A stretch of DNA of 64,000 nt from assembly GCA_964521215.1 (NCBI GenBank), contig CAZFRD010000001.1, positions 59,210 through 123,209 of the forward strand, in the 5' to 3' direction. Both the position numbers and the translations under genes were made by a program. Each line of letters starts with the position of its first letter. Positions within the stretch are counted from its first letter, which is position 1. Of the stretch, positions 4,057 to 63,039 are shown in pieces. This stretch comes from an uncultured Pseudomonadales bacterium (lineage in GTDB: Bacteria; Patescibacteriota; Microgenomatia; UBA1400; PJMF01). A model generated the notes under the pieces. The model was not told the DNA's origin. It worked only from the letters and a program-made list of their open reading frames with translations, and did no database searches.

Positions 4057-4446
4057 CTATTCGTTAGTGCGGTTTTTGTTTTGAGATAACTCTATGTTTT
4101 TTCTCCACCCACCAAGCATTTTCCCCACATCGTTTAATTTAAAAGCGATTTCCTCATATTGTTTATGAGACAGTAATTTAGCTTCCCACGCTATTGACAG
4201 TAAAAATTTAAGTGAATCAAGTAAAATAACACAGCCTGTTACCTTTTTATATTTTGCTTCCTTTTCAGTAAAATAAGATGCATATGTTTTTTCCAATAGA
4301 TCTAAAAAGGTATTTTCTATTCTGGCACCTATTGTGTAGCGTGCTCCTTTAGGCATATGAGGAACAAATCGCAACCAAATCAAATAAGCCTCTTTGAGAT
4401 GGTAAACAACAGAGTTAGTGCTATAAGGAGTAGTCATTTTAATCAT
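4057..4446 (-). CDS. avd: Avd-like accessory variability determinant (four-helix-bundle, 23S rRNA IVS-protein family)
   Basis: About 130 aa. Its layout resembles Bordetella bAvd and the IVS-protein family: YHLKEAYLIWLRFVPHMPKGARYTIGARIENTFLDLL...LLDSLKFLLSIAWEAKLL...IAFKLNDVGKMLGGWRKN. It is encoded on the strand opposite to TR and RT. Start is ambiguous: TTG at 4485, or ATG at 4446 or 4437. Confidence 0.55.
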   Translation of the reverse strand: MIKMTTPYSTNSVVYHLKEAYLIWLRFVPHMPKGARYTIGARIENTFLDLLEKTYASYFTEKEAKYKKVTGCVILLDSLKFLLSIAWEAKLLSHKQYEEIAFKLNDVGKMLGGWRKNIELSQNKNRTNE

Positions 4447-5417
4447 GTCTATGACAATATCATCTCTTTTGATAATTTGCTCCAATCTTGGAAGGATTTT
4501 TTAAATGGAAAAAGAAAGCGCAAAGATGTCATCTTATTTTCCCTAAATTTGATGGATAACATTTTGCAACTTCATCAGGATCTCTTAAACAAAACCTATC
4601 ATCATGGTTTTTATCAGGCTTTAAAATCAATGATCCAAAACCAAGAGATATTCACAAAGCTGAGGTAAAGGACAGGCTAATTCATCACGCAATTTACAGG
4701 ATTCTGTATCCATATTTTGATAAAAAATTTATTTTTGATTCATATTCTTGTCGAAAAGGTAAAGGCACACATCGAGCAATTCAGCGTTTTGTAACATTTA
4801 GCAGAAAAGTTAGCAAAAACAATACCCGCACAGCCTGGGTGCTAAAGTGCGATATTCAAAAATTTTTTGCCAATATAGATCACGATCTGCTCAATCAAAT
4901 TTTAGCTCAGCACATTGATGATCCTGATGCACTTGAGCTATTAAGAGAGGTTATCGGCAGTTTTCGAATTAACCCGTGTGTGTCAGTTGGTTTACCACTG
5001 GGAAATTTAACAAGCCAACTTTTGATAAATATTTACATGAATGAATTTGATCAGTTTGCAAAGAGAACCTTAAAAGCAAAATACTACATCCGTTATGCTG
5101 ATGACTTTGTTTTTCTCCACGAAGACAAACACACTTTGGTTGCTATGGTTCCTCAAATCGAATCTTTTTTGAAGGACAAATTAAAATTGGCTCTTAATCA
5201 GCGCAAAGTCTCTATCAAGACACTTAACTCTGGTATCGATTTTTTAGGATGGGTTAATTTTCCTCATCATCGAGTATTGCGTACAACCACAAAAAGAAGA
5301 ATGTTTCGCAAATTACAAAAAAATCATAGCAGAGAGACTCTTGCGTCGTATTTAGGATTGCTAAGTCACGGCAATGCTTATAAATTAAGATGCAGCATAT
5401 TAAGCAACAATTTTTAG
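4357..5417 (+). CDS. DGR-type reverse transcriptase (frameshifted at ~4620; start uncertain)
   Basis: Two frames (4357..4668 and ~4590..5417) together align with the Bordetella Brt RT. Matching segments include ISFDNLLQSWKDFLNGKRKRK, YHHGFYQA|FKINDPKPRDIHKAEVKDRLIHHA, SYSCRKGKGTHRAIQRF, VGLPLGNLTSQLLINIYMNEFD, IRYADDFVFL and GIDFLGW. The frame change occurs in a T-run (gcTTTaaaa) that also forms a U_UUA_AAA heptamer. The alignment shows that no residues are lost across the junction. Possible starts are ATG 4357, ATG 4399 or TTG 4477; the first two overlap the avd 5' end. Confidence 0.85.
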
Positions 5418-55476: not shown

Positions 55477-55957
55477 ATTGGATTGAAATTATAATCCTTA
55501 TGAGTAATATGTCAATAATATTATGCTATATATAATACAATATATTACAATGTTCTAGCTTTTTGAGAAGGTTTCAAGCACCTGCTATGCAAGCTAAAAA
55601 ATCATCATATTTTTTGACCAGTCATCGATCTTCCATAAGTTCTTATCGGTTTTGGAAGAAAAATGGTAAATATTGAGCATATGGAGCTAACTCGCGTTCA
55701 AATAGTGTCAATAATTTAAGCAAATCTTTGCGAATTAGGTTAGCAGTTAAAATATCCACACCTTGTTCCAATATTTGCTTTCCGGATTTTATCCGTTCGT
55801 TAAAATTGTTCATCTGTCGCTTTCTAGCAGTGGAATGCTACTCACTGTTATATTAGGTATCAATATATTACAGCCAACAACACAATTCAAGTATAAATAC
55901 TTCTATTTTGACTTCCGTACTTCTTTCAACCCAACTTTACCAGTACAATACCACTGT

Positions 55958-56731
55958 ATGATCGGCATCTTTACGAAATACCATGAACTCCTGAGCGAAT
56001 TGACTAAGCGTGAGGTGAAGCAACGTTACAAGCAATCTGTGCTCGGATATGCCTGGGTGATGCTGAATCCGTTTTTTCAGATGTTAGTGATGGCGTTTGT
56101 TTTTAAATTTTTACTCAGAGTGCAAGACTTGGGCGTGCCGTATGCCATATTTTTGTATGCGGGACTGCTACCTTGGACGCTTTTTGCTAATTCGCTCGGT
56201 AGTAGTGTCAACGCTCTAGTGGGTAACGCTGGCTTACTGACCAAGATCTATTTTCCCAGAGAAATATTCATCATGAGTACAATTTTGGCGAAAATGATCG
56301 ATTTTTTCTTAGCTTCAACGATTTTCCTTGCTATGATGGTCTGGTACCAAATTCCTATTACTTGGAACGTGCTCTGGTTTGTGCCGATCTTCCTGATCCA
56401 GATGCTTTTCACCTACGGTTTGTCGTTGATTGTGGCCGCTTTCAATCTGTTTTACCGGGATATTCAATATATTTTGGGTTTATTGATTATGGTATGGATG
56501 TATCTCACGCCCGTGATTTATCCCACCGAAATGTTTCCCGAAAACTACCGCTTTATTTTTCAGCTTAATCCCATGGCGGTGTTCGTTAACGCCTACCGTC
56601 AAGTAATTTTAGCGGGTGGTGCCCCCAACTTTTTCAGTTTGGGTATAGGCTTATTGGTGTCAGTCTTGCTCACCATTATTGGTTATGTTATTTTCAAAAA
56701 ATTGGAAGGTCAATTTGCTGATGTAGTCTAA
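55958..56731 (+). CDS. wzm: ABC-2 type polysaccharide/teichoic-acid exporter permease (Wzm/TagG-like)
   Basis: YHELLSELTKREVKQRYKQSVLGYAWVMLNPFFQM... with six transmembrane helices. The tracked ORF begins at 55763, but the family start is near ATG 55958. Confidence 0.75.
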   Translation: MIGIFTKYHELLSELTKREVKQRYKQSVLGYAWVMLNPFFQMLVMAFVFKFLLRVQDLGVPYAIFLYAGLLPWTLFANSLGSSVNALVGNAGLLTKIYFPREIFIMSTILAKMIDFFLASTIFLAMMVWYQIPITWNVLWFVPIFLIQMLFTYGLSLIVAAFNLFYRDIQYILGLLIMVWMYLTPVIYPTEMFPENYRFIFQLNPMAVFVNAYRQVILAGGAPNFFSLGIGLLVSVLLTIIGYVIFKKLEGQFADVV

Positions 56732-56982
56732 GATCGCTTCATATTTTGAAACGATTTTACATAGTGGTCTAACAGATTACGAATCATCCGTTGATAAGAT
56801 CCACCCAACTTTTCCGCCTCGTCCTTAAAAAAGCTCAGCGTCTTTTGATCCAAATTGATTGTAATTTTGATTGCTGGGGGTCGCAAAATAAGTTCTTCTG
56901 GAGGGGGTAAAAAATCAGGTACCCTAACCATCTTACCGAAGGTGCCTTCAAATACTTGATTATTTTGTTGTATTCTTTTCAT
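56728..56982 (-). CDS. brnA: BrnA-like antitoxin (CopG/RHH-like, DUF4415 type)
   Basis: Small protein immediately downstream of brnT and overlapping it. The C-terminus ...LDQKTLSFFKDEAEKLGGSYQRMIRNLLDHYV is typical of BrnA. Confidence 0.55.
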   Translation of the reverse strand: MKRIQQNNQVFEGTFGKMVRVPDFLPPPEELILRPPAIKITINLDQKTLSFFKDEAEKLGGSYQRMIRNLLDHYVKSFQNMKRS

Positions 56983-57262
56983 ATAATTTTCTTTCTTTTC
57001 TCCAAAACCCAGCTCCAATGATTCTCAGTATCCGATTTCTAATCACAAATCTTACTGTACAAACATCATCATCGACTTGCCCAATACAATACCAACGTTG
57101 TTCAACGTCAGTCGAATGACTGACATCTGCATAAATAAGTCTTTTTTTGTCATAGAATGCTCGTATTGCGTCTTTAAACCTAATGAAGTGTTTTTCATAA
57201 TTACGTTGATCTTTATTTGCATCCCACTCAAATTCGAGTATCTGAATATATGGTACTTTCAT
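56960..57262 (-). CDS. brnT: BrnT toxin (DUF497 ribonuclease family)
   Basis: FEWDANKDQRNYEKHFIRFKDAIRAFYDKKRLIYADVSHSTDVEQRWYCIGQVDDDVCTVRFVIRNRILRIIGAGFWRKERKLYE. Confidence 0.7.
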   Translation of the reverse strand: MKVPYIQILEFEWDANKDQRNYEKHFIRFKDAIRAFYDKKRLIYADVSHSTDVEQRWYCIGQVDDDVCTVRFVIRNRILRIIGAGFWRKERKLYEKNTTK

Positions 57263-57265
57263 ATG

Positions 57266-57287
57266 TATAAAATGTCAATATTTTATA
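57266..57287. promoter_or_regulatory. perfect 8-bp inverted repeat, tataaaat-gtcaat-attttata, 4 nt upstream of the brnT start codon
   Basis: Located in the divergent promoter region between brnT and the 57475 gene. Candidate BrnA (RHH) operator. Confidence 0.4.
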
Positions 57288-57474
57288 TGAATTTGAAATG
57301 TTAGTTTAAACCTTGATGCTTGCACTAACCGTAATTAGCTTAAGAAGCTTTTGTAGCATTCAACTAGTGGAATATTTGATTATTATATGTGACAATGGAC
57401 AACATCGAGATTGATTTATATATAAATTACTAGTATAATAATTTATTGATATATCGATTATTTAATCAAATACT

Positions 57475-57780
57475 ATGTCAACCGATTTCACTTCTTCAAA
57501 TCCGCCACAGACCGTTATCCAGGCTCTATGGTCGGCAGACTTAAACGCATTAGATTTGGCAAAACACAAAAAATACATCGTTCATCAAGTTCTACAGTTT
57601 GGAGATTTACAAGCAATAGCCTGGCTATTTTCAGTTTATGGAAAAACGATAGTTAAAAACCTGTTTGTTGCTCAAGCAGAAAAAGTCTATACGCCTCGAT
57701 CATTTAATTATATAACCAAATATGTTTTGGGTCTTGTTCCAGATTCTTTAAATCAAAAGTTGTATGTTTCAAATATTTAA
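57475..57780 (+). CDS. hypothetical small protein, possible antitoxin partner of the downstream AbiEii-like gene
   Basis: 101-aa ORF overlapping the next gene's start by 17 nt. No family recognised. Confidence 0.3.
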   Translation: MSTDFTSSNPPQTVIQALWSADLNALDLAKHKKYIVHQVLQFGDLQAIAWLFSVYGKTIVKNLFVAQAEKVYTPRSFNYITKYVLGLVPDSLNQKLYVSNI

Positions 57781-58417
57781 ACAGGCAATTACCGATCAAC
57801 ACGAACAAGTCATGTTCCAACTTGCCAACTTGTTTGACGGCCAAATACTCATTGGGGGAACAGGTTTAGCCTTACAAATAGGGCATCGCAAATCGGAGGA
57901 TTTAGATTATGTAATTAAACAACCAGTTGCCGAAAATATCACTTCGTTGCTTACTATAGCTACGGGTGCAAGTCAATGGCAACACCAGATGCAAAATTCT
58001 CAACAATATACTGGTTTTTGCTCTGGAATCAAAGTGACTTTTTTTCACGATAATGTTCAGTTTCTGCATCCAACTCACGAATTCGCTGGAAACCAAATTG
58101 CCGATATATCAGATATCTTTTCCTCAAAACTATTCACCATTAGTAGAAGAGCGGTATGGAGAGACTATGTTGATATAGCAGTACTTCTCGATAAAGAACT
58201 ACTATCACTGAAGGATGGAATTGTAGATGCAAAAATTCGCCACCAGGTTGATGAAAAATGGATTCTTGAGCCTCTGACCTATTTTGAGGATATAACCTAC
58301 GCTCCAATTGATTATTTGGAAAAGTCATATTCAGATGCGGAAATCAGAAATATTTTGGAGACTGAAGCTATGCAATACACTGATTTAAGATTATCATTAG
58401 CAAGTTTTGAGACTTAA
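57764..58417 (+). CDS. nucleotidyltransferase, AbiEii/AbiGii-like (short form)
   Basis: LIGGTGLALQIGHRKSEDLDYV resembles the GGTAL...R.SEDLDF motif of DUF1814/AbiEii. Confidence 0.45.
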   Translation: MFQIFKQAITDQHEQVMFQLANLFDGQILIGGTGLALQIGHRKSEDLDYVIKQPVAENITSLLTIATGASQWQHQMQNSQQYTGFCSGIKVTFFHDNVQFLHPTHEFAGNQIADISDIFSSKLFTISRRAVWRDYVDIAVLLDKELLSLKDGIVDAKIRHQVDEKWILEPLTYFEDITYAPIDYLEKSYSDAEIRNILETEAMQYTDLRLSLASFET

Positions 58418-58421
58418 GCGT

Positions 58422-59174
58422 ATGTTGAATACCACCAAAACTACCAGTGCTGTAATTCATATCTTCCATGTTTCCAAGCTTTTTCGTAAGCAAAAACAGA
58501 AGACGTTTAAGGAGTTTTTACCGGCATTGTTTGGCGGTCAGTCAACGAGTGAGACTTTTTGGGCGCTCAGCGATATTGATCTGGAAATTAAAAAAGGGGA
58601 GACGTTTGGCATTATTGGTCCCAATGGTAGCGGCAAAAGCACCTTGCTCAAACTGATTGCAGGGGTGACCAAGCCCACCAAAGGCTCAATAAAGGTCAAT
58701 GGTCAGATCGCACCTCTAATTGAGTTGGGCGCCGGTTTTCATCCGGAATTGACAGGTAGAGAGAATGTAGTCTTGAATGGGGTGATCTTGGGGATGAAGC
58801 GGGTTGAGGTGGAAAAGAAATTTAAAGATATTGTGGATTTTGCCGAATTGTGGGAATTTATTGATCAACCCGTCAAACACTACTCGTCAGGCATGTACTT
58901 GCGTCTCGCATTTGCGGTGGCGGTGCATACCGATCCCGAAATTTTGTTGGTGGATGAAATCTTGGCCGTTGGTGATGCAGCGTTTCAAGCCAAGTGTATA
59001 GCAAAAATGAATGAGTTTCGTGAGCAGGGGAGGACGATTATTATCGTGACTCATGCTTTAGATACAGTCAAAAGTTTTTGTGGGCGGGCGGCTTTCTTGC
59101 TAAAAGGCTCACTGCAACAAATTGGCGAAGCATCTCAAGTAGTAGAAGCCTACAAAACACATGGTCAGCCTTAG
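58422..59174 (+). CDS. wzt: ABC exporter ATP-binding protein (Wzt/TagH-like)
   Basis: Walker A GPNGSGKSTLLK, signature YSSGMYLRLAFAVA, Walker B ILLVDE, and H-loop VTHAL. Confidence 0.8.
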   Translation: MLNTTKTTSAVIHIFHVSKLFRKQKQKTFKEFLPALFGGQSTSETFWALSDIDLEIKKGETFGIIGPNGSGKSTLLKLIAGVTKPTKGSIKVNGQIAPLIELGAGFHPELTGRENVVLNGVILGMKRVEVEKKFKDIVDFAELWEFIDQPVKHYSSGMYLRLAFAVAVHTDPEILLVDEILAVGDAAFQAKCIAKMNEFREQGRTIIIVTHALDTVKSFCGRAAFLLKGSLQQIGEASQVVEAYKTHGQP

Positions 59175-59220
59175 CCACACCATTGCAAAAATAAGTATTT
59201 TGTTTTAGAATTACTACCAT

Positions 59221-59877
59221 ATGAGTAGTATTACGCAAATGAAAGACACTTCAATCGTTTCCCAAAAGCCCTACCTAACCAGGCCGGAGTTGGGTTTGTT
59301 GTGGAGCAAAACTGGTCGTAATTTAGATAAATCAATCTTGAGTGCACTCAATAAAAAGGAGTTAATTGCACTAAAAAAAGGCATGTACGTATTTGCTAAT
59401 AGAATAAATTTGAATGACCAAAATCATACAGAGTTTATTGCCAATTCGCTTTGTTATCCTTCATATTTATCTTTAGAATACATTCTCCAATTAGAGAAAG
59501 TTATACCAGAATCGATTTTCGTGATGACGTCAATTACTGTTGGAAAAACCATCTCCTACACCAACGCCCTAGGTTCTTTTCAGTATCGATCAATTAAGCC
59601 AACCTTATTTATTGGATTCGCCAGGACTGACTACCTACAAGACTACCAAATCAAGCGGGCGACGTTAGCCAAAGCCCTATTCGATTGGCTCTACTTACAG
59701 CCTTTTCCCCGATCATTGAGAGGTAAACTCCGGGTATTACGTGATGCTCGCCTGAATTACACCAGTATTACTCACTCAGATCTGGAAGAGCTAAAAAAGT
59801 ATATCAAGACTTCCCAGTCGTTTAAAATGACCCAATTGTTGCAAATCTTAGAAGAGGAGATAAATCATGTTGATTAA
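59221..59877 (+). CDS. abiEi: AbiEi-like antitoxin (type IV TA)
   Basis: The N-terminal domain has ...LTRPELGLLW...LIALKKGMYVF.... It overlaps the downstream AbiEii gene by 11 nt. Confidence 0.55.
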   Translation: MSSITQMKDTSIVSQKPYLTRPELGLLWSKTGRNLDKSILSALNKKELIALKKGMYVFANRINLNDQNHTEFIANSLCYPSYLSLEYILQLEKVIPESIFVMTSITVGKTISYTNALGSFQYRSIKPTLFIGFARTDYLQDYQIKRATLAKALFDWLYLQPFPRSLRGKLRVLRDARLNYTSITHSDLEELKKYIKTSQSFKMTQLLQILEEEINHVD

Positions 59878-60691
59878 TGCCTTACAACAGGTGGTTGACG
59901 ATAATCGTCACCAGCCTTTTTTATACCAAAGAAACCTGCTCAAAGAAACTATTCAGGCTTACATTCTAAATTTTGTCTACTCCTCAGCCTATGCTGAGCG
60001 TTTCCTTTTCAAGGGTGGCACCTGTCTCAGGTTTTGCTTCGATCTACCTCGCTTATCAGAAGATCTGGATTTTGATGTAGTAGACCTAGTTGATGATGAC
60101 TATCAGAACTTAGTCGATGATTTAGCTGAATATATTCTTAAAAAACTTCGGTATGAACAAATGAACAGCTCGATCAAAGGTAAAAATAGAATCATTTACT
60201 TACAATTTCCCGTTTTAGCCAAGCTTGGTCTAAGTTCTGATTTGGCGACTCATTCAGACCAAGTTTTACACGTCAGGATTGACTTAGCGCCAATCAGGGG
60301 TCAGGGATTTACTCAAGAAGTGTCTCTGCAATCCACACCTGATTTTGCCTTTTTAATTCGTCGCTATGGTCTAGCTGATTTGTTTGCTGGTAAAGTAGCG
60401 GCTGTTTTGACCAGAGAAACTCTGGAAGCGGGGGTGATAGAGCCTAGATTTAAAGGTAGGGACTTTTTTGATATTTGGTGGCTACAATCAAAAGGAGTGG
60501 AATGGAATGAAAAATATCTAGAGTCGCTGGTTGGTGTGACTTCGCCAGCTGAGATCAAATCAGCTCTAAACGCCAAAATTATACAGGCCGCTGAAAAACA
60601 GCAGCTAATCAAGCAAGACCTACTACCATTCTTCTCCGAGCCCCAATTTGTGATCGATTTCGTCACCCATCTCGACCAGTTGCGGTTTTGA
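59867..60691 (+). CDS. abiEii: AbiEii/AbiGii nucleotidyltransferase toxin (DUF1814)
   Basis: FLFKGGTCLRFCFDLPRLSEDLDFDV. Confidence 0.75.
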   Translation: MLINALQQVVDDNRHQPFLYQRNLLKETIQAYILNFVYSSAYAERFLFKGGTCLRFCFDLPRLSEDLDFDVVDLVDDDYQNLVDDLAEYILKKLRYEQMNSSIKGKNRIIYLQFPVLAKLGLSSDLATHSDQVLHVRIDLAPIRGQGFTQEVSLQSTPDFAFLIRRYGLADLFAGKVAAVLTRETLEAGVIEPRFKGRDFFDIWWLQSKGVEWNEKYLESLVGVTSPAEIKSALNAKIIQAAEKQQLIKQDLLPFFSEPQFVIDFVTHLDQLRF

Positions 60692-60877
60692 TTAGTATTA
60701 CTATACCAGCACGCTTTTCATCAAGCACTTGATTTATTTTCCAATTAAAACTCATTCCGTTTTGGTTGCATCGATGTATCGCAGTCTTAAGTGATCAGCA
60801 AGACGATCGAGCCTTAGAGTCAGATTAGACACTTCCCGAAGATGAATAATTTTTTGGTATTTTTGCGGTATACTTGA

Positions 60878-62080
60878 GTGGTGAAAACTGCTTCAAAGAA
60901 GATTGTCTACTTCGTGCATTGCTATCCACCAGCTTTGGGTGGTTTAGAATTTTTAAGTGGGGAGATTGTTAAACAGCTTCGTGATGCGGGTCATGATGTC
61001 CAAGTTATAACGGGCAAGGGTAGTACCCTAGATAGCTACAAAACGTTTGATAAATGGGTTGATGAAGCAGCAGATCCTACCTTTATTCATCGTTTACCCC
61101 TGAATACGTTCGTACAAAGGCTGGCTAATAAATTTCTGAATAAGGTTATTTTTCTCACTGGTTCAGTTTCGCCTTGGTATTTTGGTCCGCTTCTTGAGTA
61201 TGATAAAAAGACACTAGATCTAATCCAGTCAGCCGATGTGATTATTGGCGCCGGTATGCCCACAATGATGTTTTACGATGCTTATCGGTTTGCCAGGCAG
61301 TATCAGAAGCGACTAATTGTTATACCAGCATATCATGATGTGAACTATTACAATCGCTCAGTACCATTCCAAAATGTTTTGAGTTTTGCCCATAAGGTGT
61401 TATTTCTTTCTCCGTTAGAAAAAAAACAATTACAAAAACACTATCGGATTGATTCCAAGAAGCTGGCGCAATATACGTATTGCCCATATACGAAAGCAGA
61501 AATGGAGTCGGCTCAGAGTAAATATGAAAAAAAACTAGTGGAGATTGAGCAAAAATTAGAGAAGGGTGAGGTAATAACAATTGGCTTTGTGGGGCAAATT
61601 ACATTACGGAAGAATTTTCAGTTTTTTGCCGATTTTATTCGGAATAATGGGGCAGAACTAAAGAGCAAAAAGGTTAGATTGAGATTTCTATTTGCTGGTG
61701 CACGGACTAATTCTTCTCCGCAGGTAGAATCACTGTTTAAAGATCTAGATGTGGATTTAAAGTTTGTGTATGATTTTGTAGATAAGAATGAAATCTACAA
61801 ACAAATAGATATTTTTATCAATCCATCAGAGGAGGAAAGCTTGGGACTAGTCAATTTTGATGCACTGGCACAGGGATTGCCGGTTTTTGTGCATACGGAT
61901 AGTGCGTTTGCATCAATATTAATTAATAATCGTACTCCAAATAATAATAGGGTAATACATAAGTTTAATAACGAACTGAAATTGTTACAATCATTGAACT
62001 ATATTCTAATCAGCAAATTAATAGAAACTCATGTAGACAAACAAACTTTATCCCATAAAATCATTAGTATTATTAATTAA
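60878..62080 (+). CDS. GT4-type glycosyltransferase
   Basis: The N-terminus IVYFVHCYPPALGGLEFLSGEIVKQLRDAGHDVQVIT is Glyco_trans_4-like. The C-terminus has DIFINPSEEESLGLVNFDALAQGLPVF. Confidence 0.55.
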   Translation: MVKTASKKIVYFVHCYPPALGGLEFLSGEIVKQLRDAGHDVQVITGKGSTLDSYKTFDKWVDEAADPTFIHRLPLNTFVQRLANKFLNKVIFLTGSVSPWYFGPLLEYDKKTLDLIQSADVIIGAGMPTMMFYDAYRFARQYQKRLIVIPAYHDVNYYNRSVPFQNVLSFAHKVLFLSPLEKKQLQKHYRIDSKKLAQYTYCPYTKAEMESAQSKYEKKLVEIEQKLEKGEVITIGFVGQITLRKNFQFFADFIRNNGAELKSKKVRLRFLFAGARTNSSPQVESLFKDLDVDLKFVYDFVDKNEIYKQIDIFINPSEEESLGLVNFDALAQGLPVFVHTDSAFASILINNRTPNNNRVIHKFNNELKLLQSLNYILISKLIETHVDKQTLSHKIISIIN

Positions 62081-62127
62081 TTTTGTATGTTATCGATTAC
62101 ATTGTAATAAAATACTTAGGGCCTATT

Positions 62128-63039
62128 ATGATTAGCTGTAATATTTGTAGTAAGAAGGATTTTGATTCAAAATGGTACAAGAAGTGGTGCGAGGAATTTA
62201 ATGAAAAACCAAGATACCATCGTAAACAATGGGAGCACTGTATAATTGCTGAAATTTTATCAGAGAGAGGATTACTGAAATCGGGTAAAAAGGGATTGGG
62301 ATTTGCAGTGGGTGAAGAACCATTACCATCTCTTTTCGCAAAGTGGGGCGTTAAGGTTTTAGCAACGGATATTGACCCAAAGTCAAAAACTGCTAAGTTG
62401 TGGGATAACGGCCAGTTATTAAAGAATAAAAATAAACTTTGGAAAAATATTGGATCAAAAAAACAGTTTAATGAGCTTGTTTCTACTAGTTCAGTAGATA
62501 TGAACAATATTCCAAAAGAATTATTAAAACACAAATTTGATTTTAATTGGTCATCATGCTCATTTGAACATTTGGGCTCAATTCAAAAAGGTATTGAATT
62601 TATAATTAAACAAATGGATTCTGTAAAAGAAGGAGGCTGGTCAATACATACTACTGAATTGAATCTCTCGTCCAATCAGAGCACTCTTGAGAATGAAAAT
62701 CTGGTTGTTTATCGTTTAAAAGATATATATCGTATGATAGATAGACTAGAAGCAAAAGGCTGTATAGTAGAACCACTTATACTTACCACAGGTACTTCAA
62801 AGATCGAAAAGTATGTTGATTTACCTCCATATGTTCAATCTCCACACCTTCGGTTATTGTTGGCTAATTTTGTATCGACATCAATAGTCTTAATAATTCA
62901 AAAACGAGCTACATTTAATAACTCTTTTAGAAGAATTTACAGACTCTTTGAGTATTACTACAATCTATTTGTACTAAAATTCTACTATTACGCTTTTTTG
63001 AGAGCCCCGTTAAAACAAAGGTTAGCAAATGCCAAATAA
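62128..63039 (+). CDS. putative SAM-dependent methyltransferase
   Basis: GLGFAVGEEPLPSLFAKWGVKVLATDIDP is motif-I-like. The start is uncertain. Confidence 0.35.
   Translation: MISCNICSKKDFDSKWYKKWCEEFNEKPRYHRKQWEHCIIAEILSERGLLKSGKKGLGFAVGEEPLPSLFAKWGVKVLATDIDPKSKTAKLWDNGQLLKNKNKLWKNIGSKKQFNELVSTSSVDMNNIPKELLKHKFDFNWSSCSFEHLGSIQKGIEFIIKQMDSVKEGGWSIHTTELNLSSNQSTLENENLVVYRLKDIYRMIDRLEAKGCIVEPLILTTGTSKIEKYVDLPPYVQSPHLRLLLANFVSTSIVLIIQKRATFNNSFRRIYRLFEYYYNLFVLKFYYYAFLRAPLKQRLANAK

Follow-up and report, generated by a model that had tools for sequence, protein, structure and literature searches.

Glycopolymer exporters of the Wzm/Wzt and TagG/TagH type pair an ABC-2 permease with an ATP-binding cassette (ABC) ATPase. 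In the 64-kb stretch of DNA analysed here (the window; positions 59,210 to 123,209 of contig CAZFRD010000001.1), the two genes of such an exporter, wzm and wzt, stand apart, and three gene pairs of toxin–antitoxin (TA) type lie between and behind them. The closest precedents for these pairs are the BrnT/BrnA type II TA modules, in which the toxin gene comes first and a small CopG/BrnA-like gene overlaps it downstream, and the bicistronic AbiE type IV system. For the arrangement as a whole they are the integration hot spots and defence islands that comparative genomics has described between conserved core genes in its literature on horizontal gene transfer. AbiE is a known abortive-infection system (PMC7450476). 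The DUF1814 family of its toxin is defined by an N-terminal GG[ST]...S-x-D-x-D and a C-terminal K / R-D-x-x-D motif; these motifs, a phosphoserine and a catalytic Asp/Lys/Asp have been described for MenT3 and MenT4, and DUF1814 toxins pair with several unrelated antitoxin types (PMC7450476). Classical defence systems are, by general account, scarce in Patescibacteria (PMC12455944).

We believe that an ancestral wzm–wzt–GT4 operon (GT, glycosyltransferase) was opened stepwise by three TA cassettes at insertion-tolerant junctions, leaving wzt on a cassette promoter, and we give this reading a probability of about three in four. The starting point would be a translationally coupled operon in a large cell-surface glycan locus of Candidatus Woesebacteria (Patescibacteria, the candidate phyla radiation or CPR). 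Both gene junctions would have been opened by autonomous two-gene cassettes, an antisense brnT–brnA and a sense DUF6922–short abiEii pair between wzm and wzt, and a sense abiEi–abiEii pair between wzt and GT4 (Table 1). The build-up would have been stepwise, through recombination between related genomes and local rearrangements, with no recognisable mobile element; selfish or defence-type cassettes would have collected passively at a recombination-prone junction, the glycan locus itself being variable.

The locus clearly exemplifies an insertion hot spot, and it reveals no system of a new kind: TA cassettes and integration hot spots are known phenomena, as are DUF1814 toxins that pair with diverse antitoxins. 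The points of note are a hot spot tied to one junction and a candidate antitoxin, DUF6922. The locus also gives a nucleotide-level record, intermediates included, of how a transporter operon with translationally coupled genes can be opened by selfish two-gene cassettes and still survive, in hosts that are commonly held to have few defence and TA systems. We found no earlier description of the arrangement in the literature searched on TA genes in Patescibacteria, on wzm/wzt with TA genes or on defence genes in O-antigen loci.

Table 1. Coordinates of the exporter genes, the TA-type pairs and the flanking features in the window.
Feature	Position	Strand	Profile match or other evidence
wzm, ABC-2 type glycopolymer-export permease, 257 aa	55958..56731	+	PF01061 ABC2_membrane, E 2e-19
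brnA-like gene, putative antitoxin, 96 aa	56728..57018	-	weak BrnA/CopG matches, E 2e-3 and 8e-3, under Pfam cut-offs
brnT, putative RNase-type toxin, 100 aa	56960..57262	-	PF04365, E 3e-18, profile positions 1-73 of 77
AT-rich divergent intergenic region with candidate promoter	57263..57474		promoter scan, 10/12 match
DUF6922 protein, putative antitoxin/partner of the short AbiEii, 101 aa	57475..57780	+	PF21956, E 1e-11
short AbiEii, DUF1814-family nucleotidyltransferase, putative toxin, 217 aa	57764..58417	+	PF08843, E 4e-10 (3.7e-10)
wzt, ABC ATPase, 250 aa	58422 (ATG) or 58407 (TTG)..59174	+	ABC_tran, E 3e-24
abiEi, putative antitoxin/regulator, 218 aa	59221..59877	+	PADLOC AbiEi PDLC02241, E 2.8e-39, residues 17-213
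abiEii, putative nucleotidyltransferase toxin, 274 aa	59867..60691	+	PF08843, E 4e-22; PADLOC AbiEii, E 5.7e-33, profile positions 5-249 of 270
spacer, 186 nt, part of the second inserted segment (~59175-60890)	60692..60877		no homology to relatives by blastn and alignment against clade A loci
GT4 glycosyltransferase, 400 aa, GTG start	60878..62080	+	Glycos_transf_1 / Glyco_trans_1_4

The opened junctions and their relatives

All genes named in the first-pass annotation of the window lie where it had placed them, and the gap that it gave as about 1.7 kb measures 1690 nt from the wzm stop to the wzt ATG, with the antisense gene pair inside it. In the eight closest uninterrupted loci (L082–L088 and L090; Wzm 93% identical), wzm and wzt overlap by 11 nt, and wzt and GT4 by 14 nt. 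Since the three genes overlap in these relatives, the split state of the window is derived and the TA genes are insertions, which answers the synteny comparison that the annotation had proposed as a check.

The edges of the insertions can be placed closely. Nucleotide homology between the window and the eight loci covers 55919-56729, 58470-59132 and 60899-61912 only, with none between. Against these loci of the uninterrupted clade A it ends at the wzm stop (56729-56731), restarts at about 58470, ends again near 59132-59157 and restarts at about 60899. The left junction reads GCAGATGTCGTCTGA in the relatives, where the 3' end of wzm contains the wzt ATG, and GCTGATGTAGTCTAA in the window, where a relic of the old wzt ATG (56721-56723) is followed directly by TAG. 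The first ~15 residues of Wzt are non-homologous to those of uninterrupted relatives, homology restarting at HVSKLFRK (near 58466-58470), and the new N-terminus is common to the window and L124. The C-terminus of wzt and the N-terminus of GT4 were likewise rebuilt around the second inserted segment.

Several relatives hold parts of the arrangement. L091–L094 (Wzm 90%) have wzm, then a minus-strand 55-aa open reading frame (ORF), a 79-aa lipoprotein-like ORF, brnA and brnT, and then wzt, without AbiE-type genes; L089 (Wzm 96%) has wzm followed by a minus-strand block of a 51-aa ORF, brnA and brnT. In L124 and L125 (Wzm 78%) the order is wzm, a 54-aa minus-strand ORF, DUF6922, short abiEii and wzt, with no brnTA between; colinearity between L124 and the window runs from the DUF6922 promoter into wzt (57427-58996, 76% nucleotide identity). 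L123, for which Wzm identity is not applicable, shows a brnA remnant, DUF6922, abiEii and then only the first few codons of wzt.

Divergence along the locus is uneven. Between the window and L089, brnT is 99% identical with a synonymous divergence (dS) of 0.04, and the neighbouring wzm has a dS of 0.84; BrnA is 96% identical, a 211-bp deletion took out the 51-aa ORF, and BrnA gained 13 C-terminal residues by stop loss. Compared with clade A, GT4 has a dS of 0.7-0.8 (89-90% identity to the GT4 of L082 and L090), and both wzm and wzt are saturated. This mosaic of dS values (brnT against wzm, GT4 against the saturated exporter genes) indicates recombination with breakpoints at gene boundaries. 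In clade A the minus-strand block of a 51-aa ORF, an 80-aa ORF, brnA and brnT sits ~1.6 kb upstream of wzm. As brnTA lies upstream of wzm in that clade and between wzm and wzt elsewhere, it is a long-standing cassette of the glycan locus of this lineage that has moved, and not a fresh acquisition.

We found no recombinase, integrase or transposase gene at 51-63 kb and no convincing terminal repeats. A mobile element (insertion sequence, integron cassette or integrative island) was accordingly rejected as the insertion vehicle, there being no recombinase or transposase gene, no terminal inverted repeats and no target-site duplication. Flanking repeats as insertion scars were rejected too, the short two-copy matches being of the kind expected by chance. 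GC content was dropped as an insertion marker: the TA segment has 30-39% GC, and the non-TA genes at 52-55.8 kb are equally so.

Both exporter genes are full length and under strong purifying selection; the ratio of nonsynonymous to synonymous divergence is ~0.02 for wzm and 0.04-0.07 for wzt, the comparison with the likewise split L091 included. Walker A (GPNGSGKST), signature (YSSGM), Walker B (ILLVDE) and H-loop (IVTH) are all intact in the Wzt alignment, and the exporter is, as judged from its sequence, still functional. Full-length genes, low ratios and intact ATPase motifs together indicate that the split state is tolerated across long evolutionary distances.

Like TagG/TagH and Wzm/Wzt exporters, the pair combines an ABC-2 permease with an ATPase that best matches TagH (NCBIfam E 2e-70) and galactan Wzt (E 3e-56), and it is placed among GT2, GT4, GT-C-like and flippase genes. 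Unlike them, it scores far under the equivalog cut-offs (TagH, galactan Wzt/Wzm and KpsM are not reached, e.g. 238 against a cut-off of 538 and 78.5 against 380), and its genes are neither adjacent nor coupled. Only a family-level assignment therefore appears justified from these profiles. The lack of a C-terminal carbohydrate-binding domain in Wzt, already remarked on in the first-pass annotation, is borne out: the 250-aa protein is a nucleotide-binding domain only, and its close relatives are all alike (241-257 aa). To our knowledge CPR bacteria have no lipopolysaccharide, so the term O-antigen is inapplicable here and Wzm/Wzt serves as a family-level name only. Permease homologues of 90-96% identity come from metagenome bins of Candidatus Woesebacteria and the Microgenomates group. 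A single large surface-glycan locus takes up the window from 28.7 to 63 kb; besides about ten GT-C-like membrane proteins (PMT_2 / PTPS_related / YfhO type) it encodes an epimerase, GT2 and GT4 enzymes and a Wzx-like flippase.

The junction between wzm and wzt in other genomes

Our survey covered 80 loci fetched around Wzm homologues, 72 of them with wzt downstream on the same strand and mostly from Patescibacteria. A junction was called interrupted when the gap between the two genes was at least 150 nt. The gap is below this limit, mostly with overlapping genes, in 54 of the 72 loci, in agreement with the earlier statement that wzm and wzt are normally adjacent; it reaches or exceeds the limit in the other 18. 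The cargo, mostly co-oriented with wzm and wzt, differs from locus to locus. It comprises AbiEi–AbiEii (L011, L061), a DUF6922-like gene with AbiEii (L009), genes for four-helix-bundle proteins of the 23S_rRNA_IVP family (L007, L035, L049, L071), NYN-domain genes (L051, L058, L064), AAA_14–DUF4143 (L020), RhuM/Fic and Fic (L064), Phd–PIN (L071), glycan genes (L010, L024) and a CofD-like gene (L053). At least six cargo families are represented, which points to several independent events. The L009 cassette is an unrelated copy (31% identity) of the DUF6922–AbiEii type in the same place.

The enrichment at this junction was measured for the AbiE, DUF6922, NYN and IVP families in a leave-one-out design, the family models being rebuilt minus each locus's own sequence. 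These families occupy 10 of the 72 wzm–wzt junctions, against 10 modules at the ~1139 remaining junctions in these loci (odds ratio 18, p 3e-8), and 8 of the 10 copies outside the junction lie within 3 kb of wzm/wzt. Two very conserved genes border the junction, and Wzt can have its first ~15 residues replaced; this may be why small genes of a selfish or defence type accumulate there across lineages. The likeness to integration hot spots and defence islands lies in the differing cargo at one position between two conserved genes across lineages, in the mosaic identity along the locus and in the absence of dedicated mobility genes. The differences are that the site falls within a two-gene transporter operon whose genes normally overlap, and not between independent core genes, and that the hosts are mostly Patescibacteria. 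In uncultured bacteria, new accessory or defence genes of small size could be sought at this junction, which would make a handy marker site.

One interrupted locus comes from a Thermodesulfovibrionales bin: L071 (1643-3362) carries a 23S_rRNA_IVP gene and a Phd–PIN pair between wzm and wzt. The pattern is thus not strictly limited to the CPR, and the hot spot may extend past the Patescibacteria.

The three cassettes

The cassette next to wzt joins DUF6922 to a short AbiEii, the two genes overlapping by 17 nt. The short AbiEii also matches the PADLOC AbiEii profile (E 3e-6). In an alignment of 15 homologues G31, G32, T33, R42, S44, D46, D48, K122, R129, W132, D134, Y135, V136 and D137 are invariant; the stretch W132-D137 reads WRDYVD, R133 being nearly invariant. 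The conserved positions match the DUF1814 motifs and, in MenT3/MenT4, the phosphoserine and the catalytic Asp/Lys/Asp. The protein therefore keeps the Ser/Asp-x-Asp, Lys and Asp positions of AbiE and MenAT toxins, but its partner is DUF6922, and the pair is known here from sequence. Searches of the Protein Data Bank (PDB) by sequence and profile with both AbiEii proteins (217 aa and 274 aa) gave nothing usable.

A DUF6922 homologue stands directly upstream of the short AbiEii in all 23 metagenome loci with room upstream, none of which has wzm/wzt nearby, and this identifies the pair as an autonomous two-gene cassette. The same order is found in L009, L021, L123, L124 and L127. The AlphaFold 2 model of DUF6922 is confident (predicted local distance difference test 89.5) and has six helices, and its predicted fold has no neighbour in the PDB. 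The protein gave no match to PADLOC or antitoxin profiles, falls outside the described antitoxin families (AbiEi/COG5340, MazE-like, COG4861) and is not mentioned in the literature searched. DUF6922 is probably an undescribed antitoxin, and with its short AbiEii/MenT-like toxin it offers a concrete candidate for a new antitoxin family. Given that DUF1814 toxins pair with diverse antitoxins, such a partner would be a variation on a known theme.

Two further copies were noted at other positions. In L123 (8940-8966), a DUF6922–abiEii copy away from wzt retains the first few wzt codons past the abiEii stop and has the brnA remnant upstream; the retained codons indicate that it descends from a wzt-adjacent copy. 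In L003 (4116-6390, a Microgenomates bin), AbiEi–AbiEii and DUF6922–AbiEii pairs stand in tandem 1.5 kb upstream of wzm; these are the two AbiEii cassette types of the window in another position.

In the antisense pair, brnT precedes and overlaps brnA. The latter and wzm are convergent, and their stop codons share 4 nt. The BrnT domain is well over the Pfam threshold (PF04365, 66.3 bits against a cut-off of 34.5), and the toxin-first order with an overlapping small CopG/BrnA-like gene downstream is that of type II BrnT/BrnA modules. The putative antitoxin differs from the described type in that its matches stay under threshold (PF14384, 19.1 bits against 26.1; PF12441, 17.4 against 28) and that it carries the 13-residue extension from stop-codon loss. 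brnA is paired with brnT in the same gene order in all five relatives L082, L088, L089, L090 and L091. The first-pass assignment of TA modules thus holds up in profile searches for all three pairs, with BrnA as its weak part, under the cut-offs. By analogy with their families, BrnT would be an RNase neutralised by BrnA. Both AbiEii/DUF1814 proteins would be nucleotidyltransferase toxins that block translation by modifying the tRNA 3' end, restrained by AbiEi and presumably by DUF6922.

Three more ORFs travel with brnTA in relatives (L082 7431-7849; L091 4724-5149 and 6900-7673; L089 1002-1157; L002 10771-11127). One is highly charged, 51-55 aa long, and its stop overlaps the wzm stop by 4 nt; the second (79-80 aa) has a lipoprotein-type signal (..AC/DS, cleavage at the stroke), and the third (252-265 aa) is lipoprotein-like. 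No Pfam family was matched by the small ORFs near brnTA in relatives (51-55, 79-80, 91-150 and 252-265 aa), and these were rejected as DUF6922 homologues, not being homologous.

The pair behind wzt was described from the start as a canonical abiEi–abiEii pair, and the profiles agree: it is bicistronic, abiEii overlaps abiEi by 11 nt, and both proteins match AbiE profiles near full length (PADLOC E, rounded, 3e-39 and 6e-33). The AbiEii translation contains GGTCL...SEDLDFD, AGKVAA and GRDFFD. AbiEi matches NCBIfam TAA_AbiEi under its cut-off (E 5e-5) and has no Pfam match. By these matches 59221-60691 is a canonical AbiE system. A candidate promoter lies ahead of abiEi at 59183-59211. A 13-nt direct repeat (12/13 match), TGAGTAGTATTAC and TGATTAGTATTAC, flanks the cassette at 59222-59234 and 60689-60701, its two copies coinciding with the start of abiEi and the stop of abiEii; the repeat was rejected as an insertion scar since it has no match to the ancestral wzt–GT4 junction, and it may be due to chance.

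An anti-phage function is plausible for the AbiE pair, judging by its family. A possible reading, although on balance an unlikely one, is that the cassettes form a defence island and are kept for abortive-infection immunity beside genes for the surface glycan as phage receptor, receptor variation and defence being exchanged together. The complete AbiE system by defence-system profiles fits this idea, as do the further families of defence or TA type that relatives carry at this junction and the clustering near wzm/wzt of the copies outside it. However, passive accumulation in a recombination hot spot predicts this clustering equally, only one of the three pairs matches PADLOC models, and these genes are missing from close relatives that retain the glycan locus. 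A link to phage or prophage was not seen: a scan of viral contigs with the 274-aa AbiEii found no relatives, which leaves phage carriage unsupported.

Expression of wzt and the remaining readings

The candidate promoter ahead of DUF6922 consists of a -35 element TTGATT (57411-57416), a 17-nt spacer and a -10 element TATAAT (57434-57439), 36 nt before the DUF6922 ATG. TTG, CTAGTATAAT and the palindrome GATATATC (57448-57455, between the -10 element and the ATG) are invariant or nearly so in four cassette copies of ~75% nucleotide identity. No sigma-70-like match was found on the plus strand between 57850 and 58422, that is, in the ~570 nt ahead of wzt. The wzt ATG lies 4 nt past the stop of the short abiEii and is conserved. 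As brnTA is antisense and converges on wzm with overlapping stops, read-through from wzm is unlikely to serve wzt. Most likely, on the evidence of these sites, wzt is co-transcribed with DUF6922–abiEii from their conserved candidate promoter, and read-through would continue into abiEi–abiEii and GT4. On the question raised in the first-pass annotation, whether the wzt start (TTG or ATG) has its own promoter, there is no such site directly before the gene but a conserved candidate further up, ahead of DUF6922.

Two ACTAGT palindromes (57364-57372 and 57430-57435) together with GATATATC surround the candidate DUF6922 promoter and are conserved in the four diverged cassette copies. These palindromes are possible operator sites.

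Several points weigh against a stepwise opening of the operon as we describe it. L124, which shares DUF6922–abiEii–wzt with the window, stands further from it in Wzm/Wzt (78-79%) than the uninterrupted clade A does (86-93%). Either recombination carried the cassette laterally or clade A lost it precisely, which bears on the direction of events. Sliding-window identity was uninformative on a crossover in wzt or wzm, synonymous sites being saturated. The hot-spot statistic takes loci as independent, and some cargo (e.g. NYN in L051, L058 and L064) may be inherited within a clade; its family models, moreover, derive from gap proteins. Against shuffled sequence the promoter scan shows no enrichment (23 sites against 17 +/- 3), and CPR promoters are uncharacterised. 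BrnA is only weakly identified by profile, and the toxin and antitoxin roles of all three pairs are predictions from sequence.

We consider doubtful a stronger version in which the wzm–wzt overlap would be a specific hot spot across Patescibacteria and, in at least one case, beyond; the cassettes would take over wzt transcription and make export conditional on an autoregulated TA promoter; and the antitoxins of DUF1814 toxins would gain a new class, DUF6922, with a new fold. Under functional integration, the cassette proteins would have been recruited to regulate glycan export, wzt standing under an antitoxin-autoregulated promoter so that export follows the TA state. The 4-nt distance from the short abiEii to wzt, the conserved promoter palindromes and the cassette of the same type in L009 all suit this idea, as does the colinearity of DUF6922–abiEii–wzt in the window, L127 and L124 despite ~25% nucleotide divergence. 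Yet coupling to the nearest upstream promoter is the default outcome of any sense-strand insertion, the cassette occurs without wzt in 23 other loci, and most relatives export without it, which makes such recruitment improbable.

The first-pass annotation had suggested that the TA genes stabilise an acquired island. In that case they would hold the glycan genes in place by post-segregational killing, which might account for the presence of as many as three TA pairs within 4 kb at a variable glycan locus and for the differences between relatives in the genes past GT4. But the backbone of the locus (a 563-aa PTPS_related protein, an epimerase, wzm, wzt and GT4) is syntenic in relatives whose junctions here carry no TA genes. 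It is the cassettes that move and get lost, as the varying position of brnTA and the brnA remnant of L123 illustrate, and neither island boundaries nor an integrase or tRNA lie nearby; addiction is not supported, and we find it very improbable. Rfam and tRNA scans of the window were both empty. No further TA module was recognised among its remaining non-overlapped ORFs; the density of TA genes here exceeds chance.

The arrangement is not an assembly artefact. An exact-protein look-up of Wzt led to an assembly of run SRR8893623 (L001) in which the arrangement is identical; the same look-up of Wzm had no match, gene callers having chosen a longer start. Contigs from other runs span the window at 57271-58620 with 97% nucleotide identity (L127) and from wzm to brnT (L089). 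Metagenome assemblies can be chimeric at repeats and the wzt N-terminus is non-homologous to the closest relatives, but a chimeric contig or a decaying exporter is scarcely credible when independent assemblies reproduce each junction, L124 has the same new N-terminus, and both genes are full length under strong purifying selection with the catalytic motifs of Wzt kept.

A few other features of the window deserve mention. Past GT4, a 318-aa ORF (62083-63039, plus strand) belongs to no Pfam, NCBIfam or PADLOC family; a homologue with 37% identity lies immediately upstream of wzt in L010 (17221-18093), and in view of this position the ORF appears to be a conserved companion of this exporter. At 28761-54319 the ten or so paralogous GT-C-like membrane proteins (470-585 aa) form a long run mostly on one strand, with GT2, GT4 and Wzx-like flippase genes interspersed; PMT_2, PTPS_related and YfhO are the families matched, and some of the paralogues match nothing. 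Numerous contigs with a Patescibacteria-type Wzm (70-93% identical to that of the window; L002, L005–L007, L009–L011 and others) are titled 'uncultured Pseudomonadales' or 'Gammaproteobacteria bacterium', titles that look at odds with their gene content. Far from the exporter, a bAvd-like four-helix-bundle protein (4057-4485, minus strand; PF22296, E 2e-14) adjoins a reverse-transcriptase ORF (4839-5417, plus strand) that matches the C-terminal two thirds of RVT_1 only (E 6e-17), and the pair looks like a diversity-generating retroelement or its remnant.

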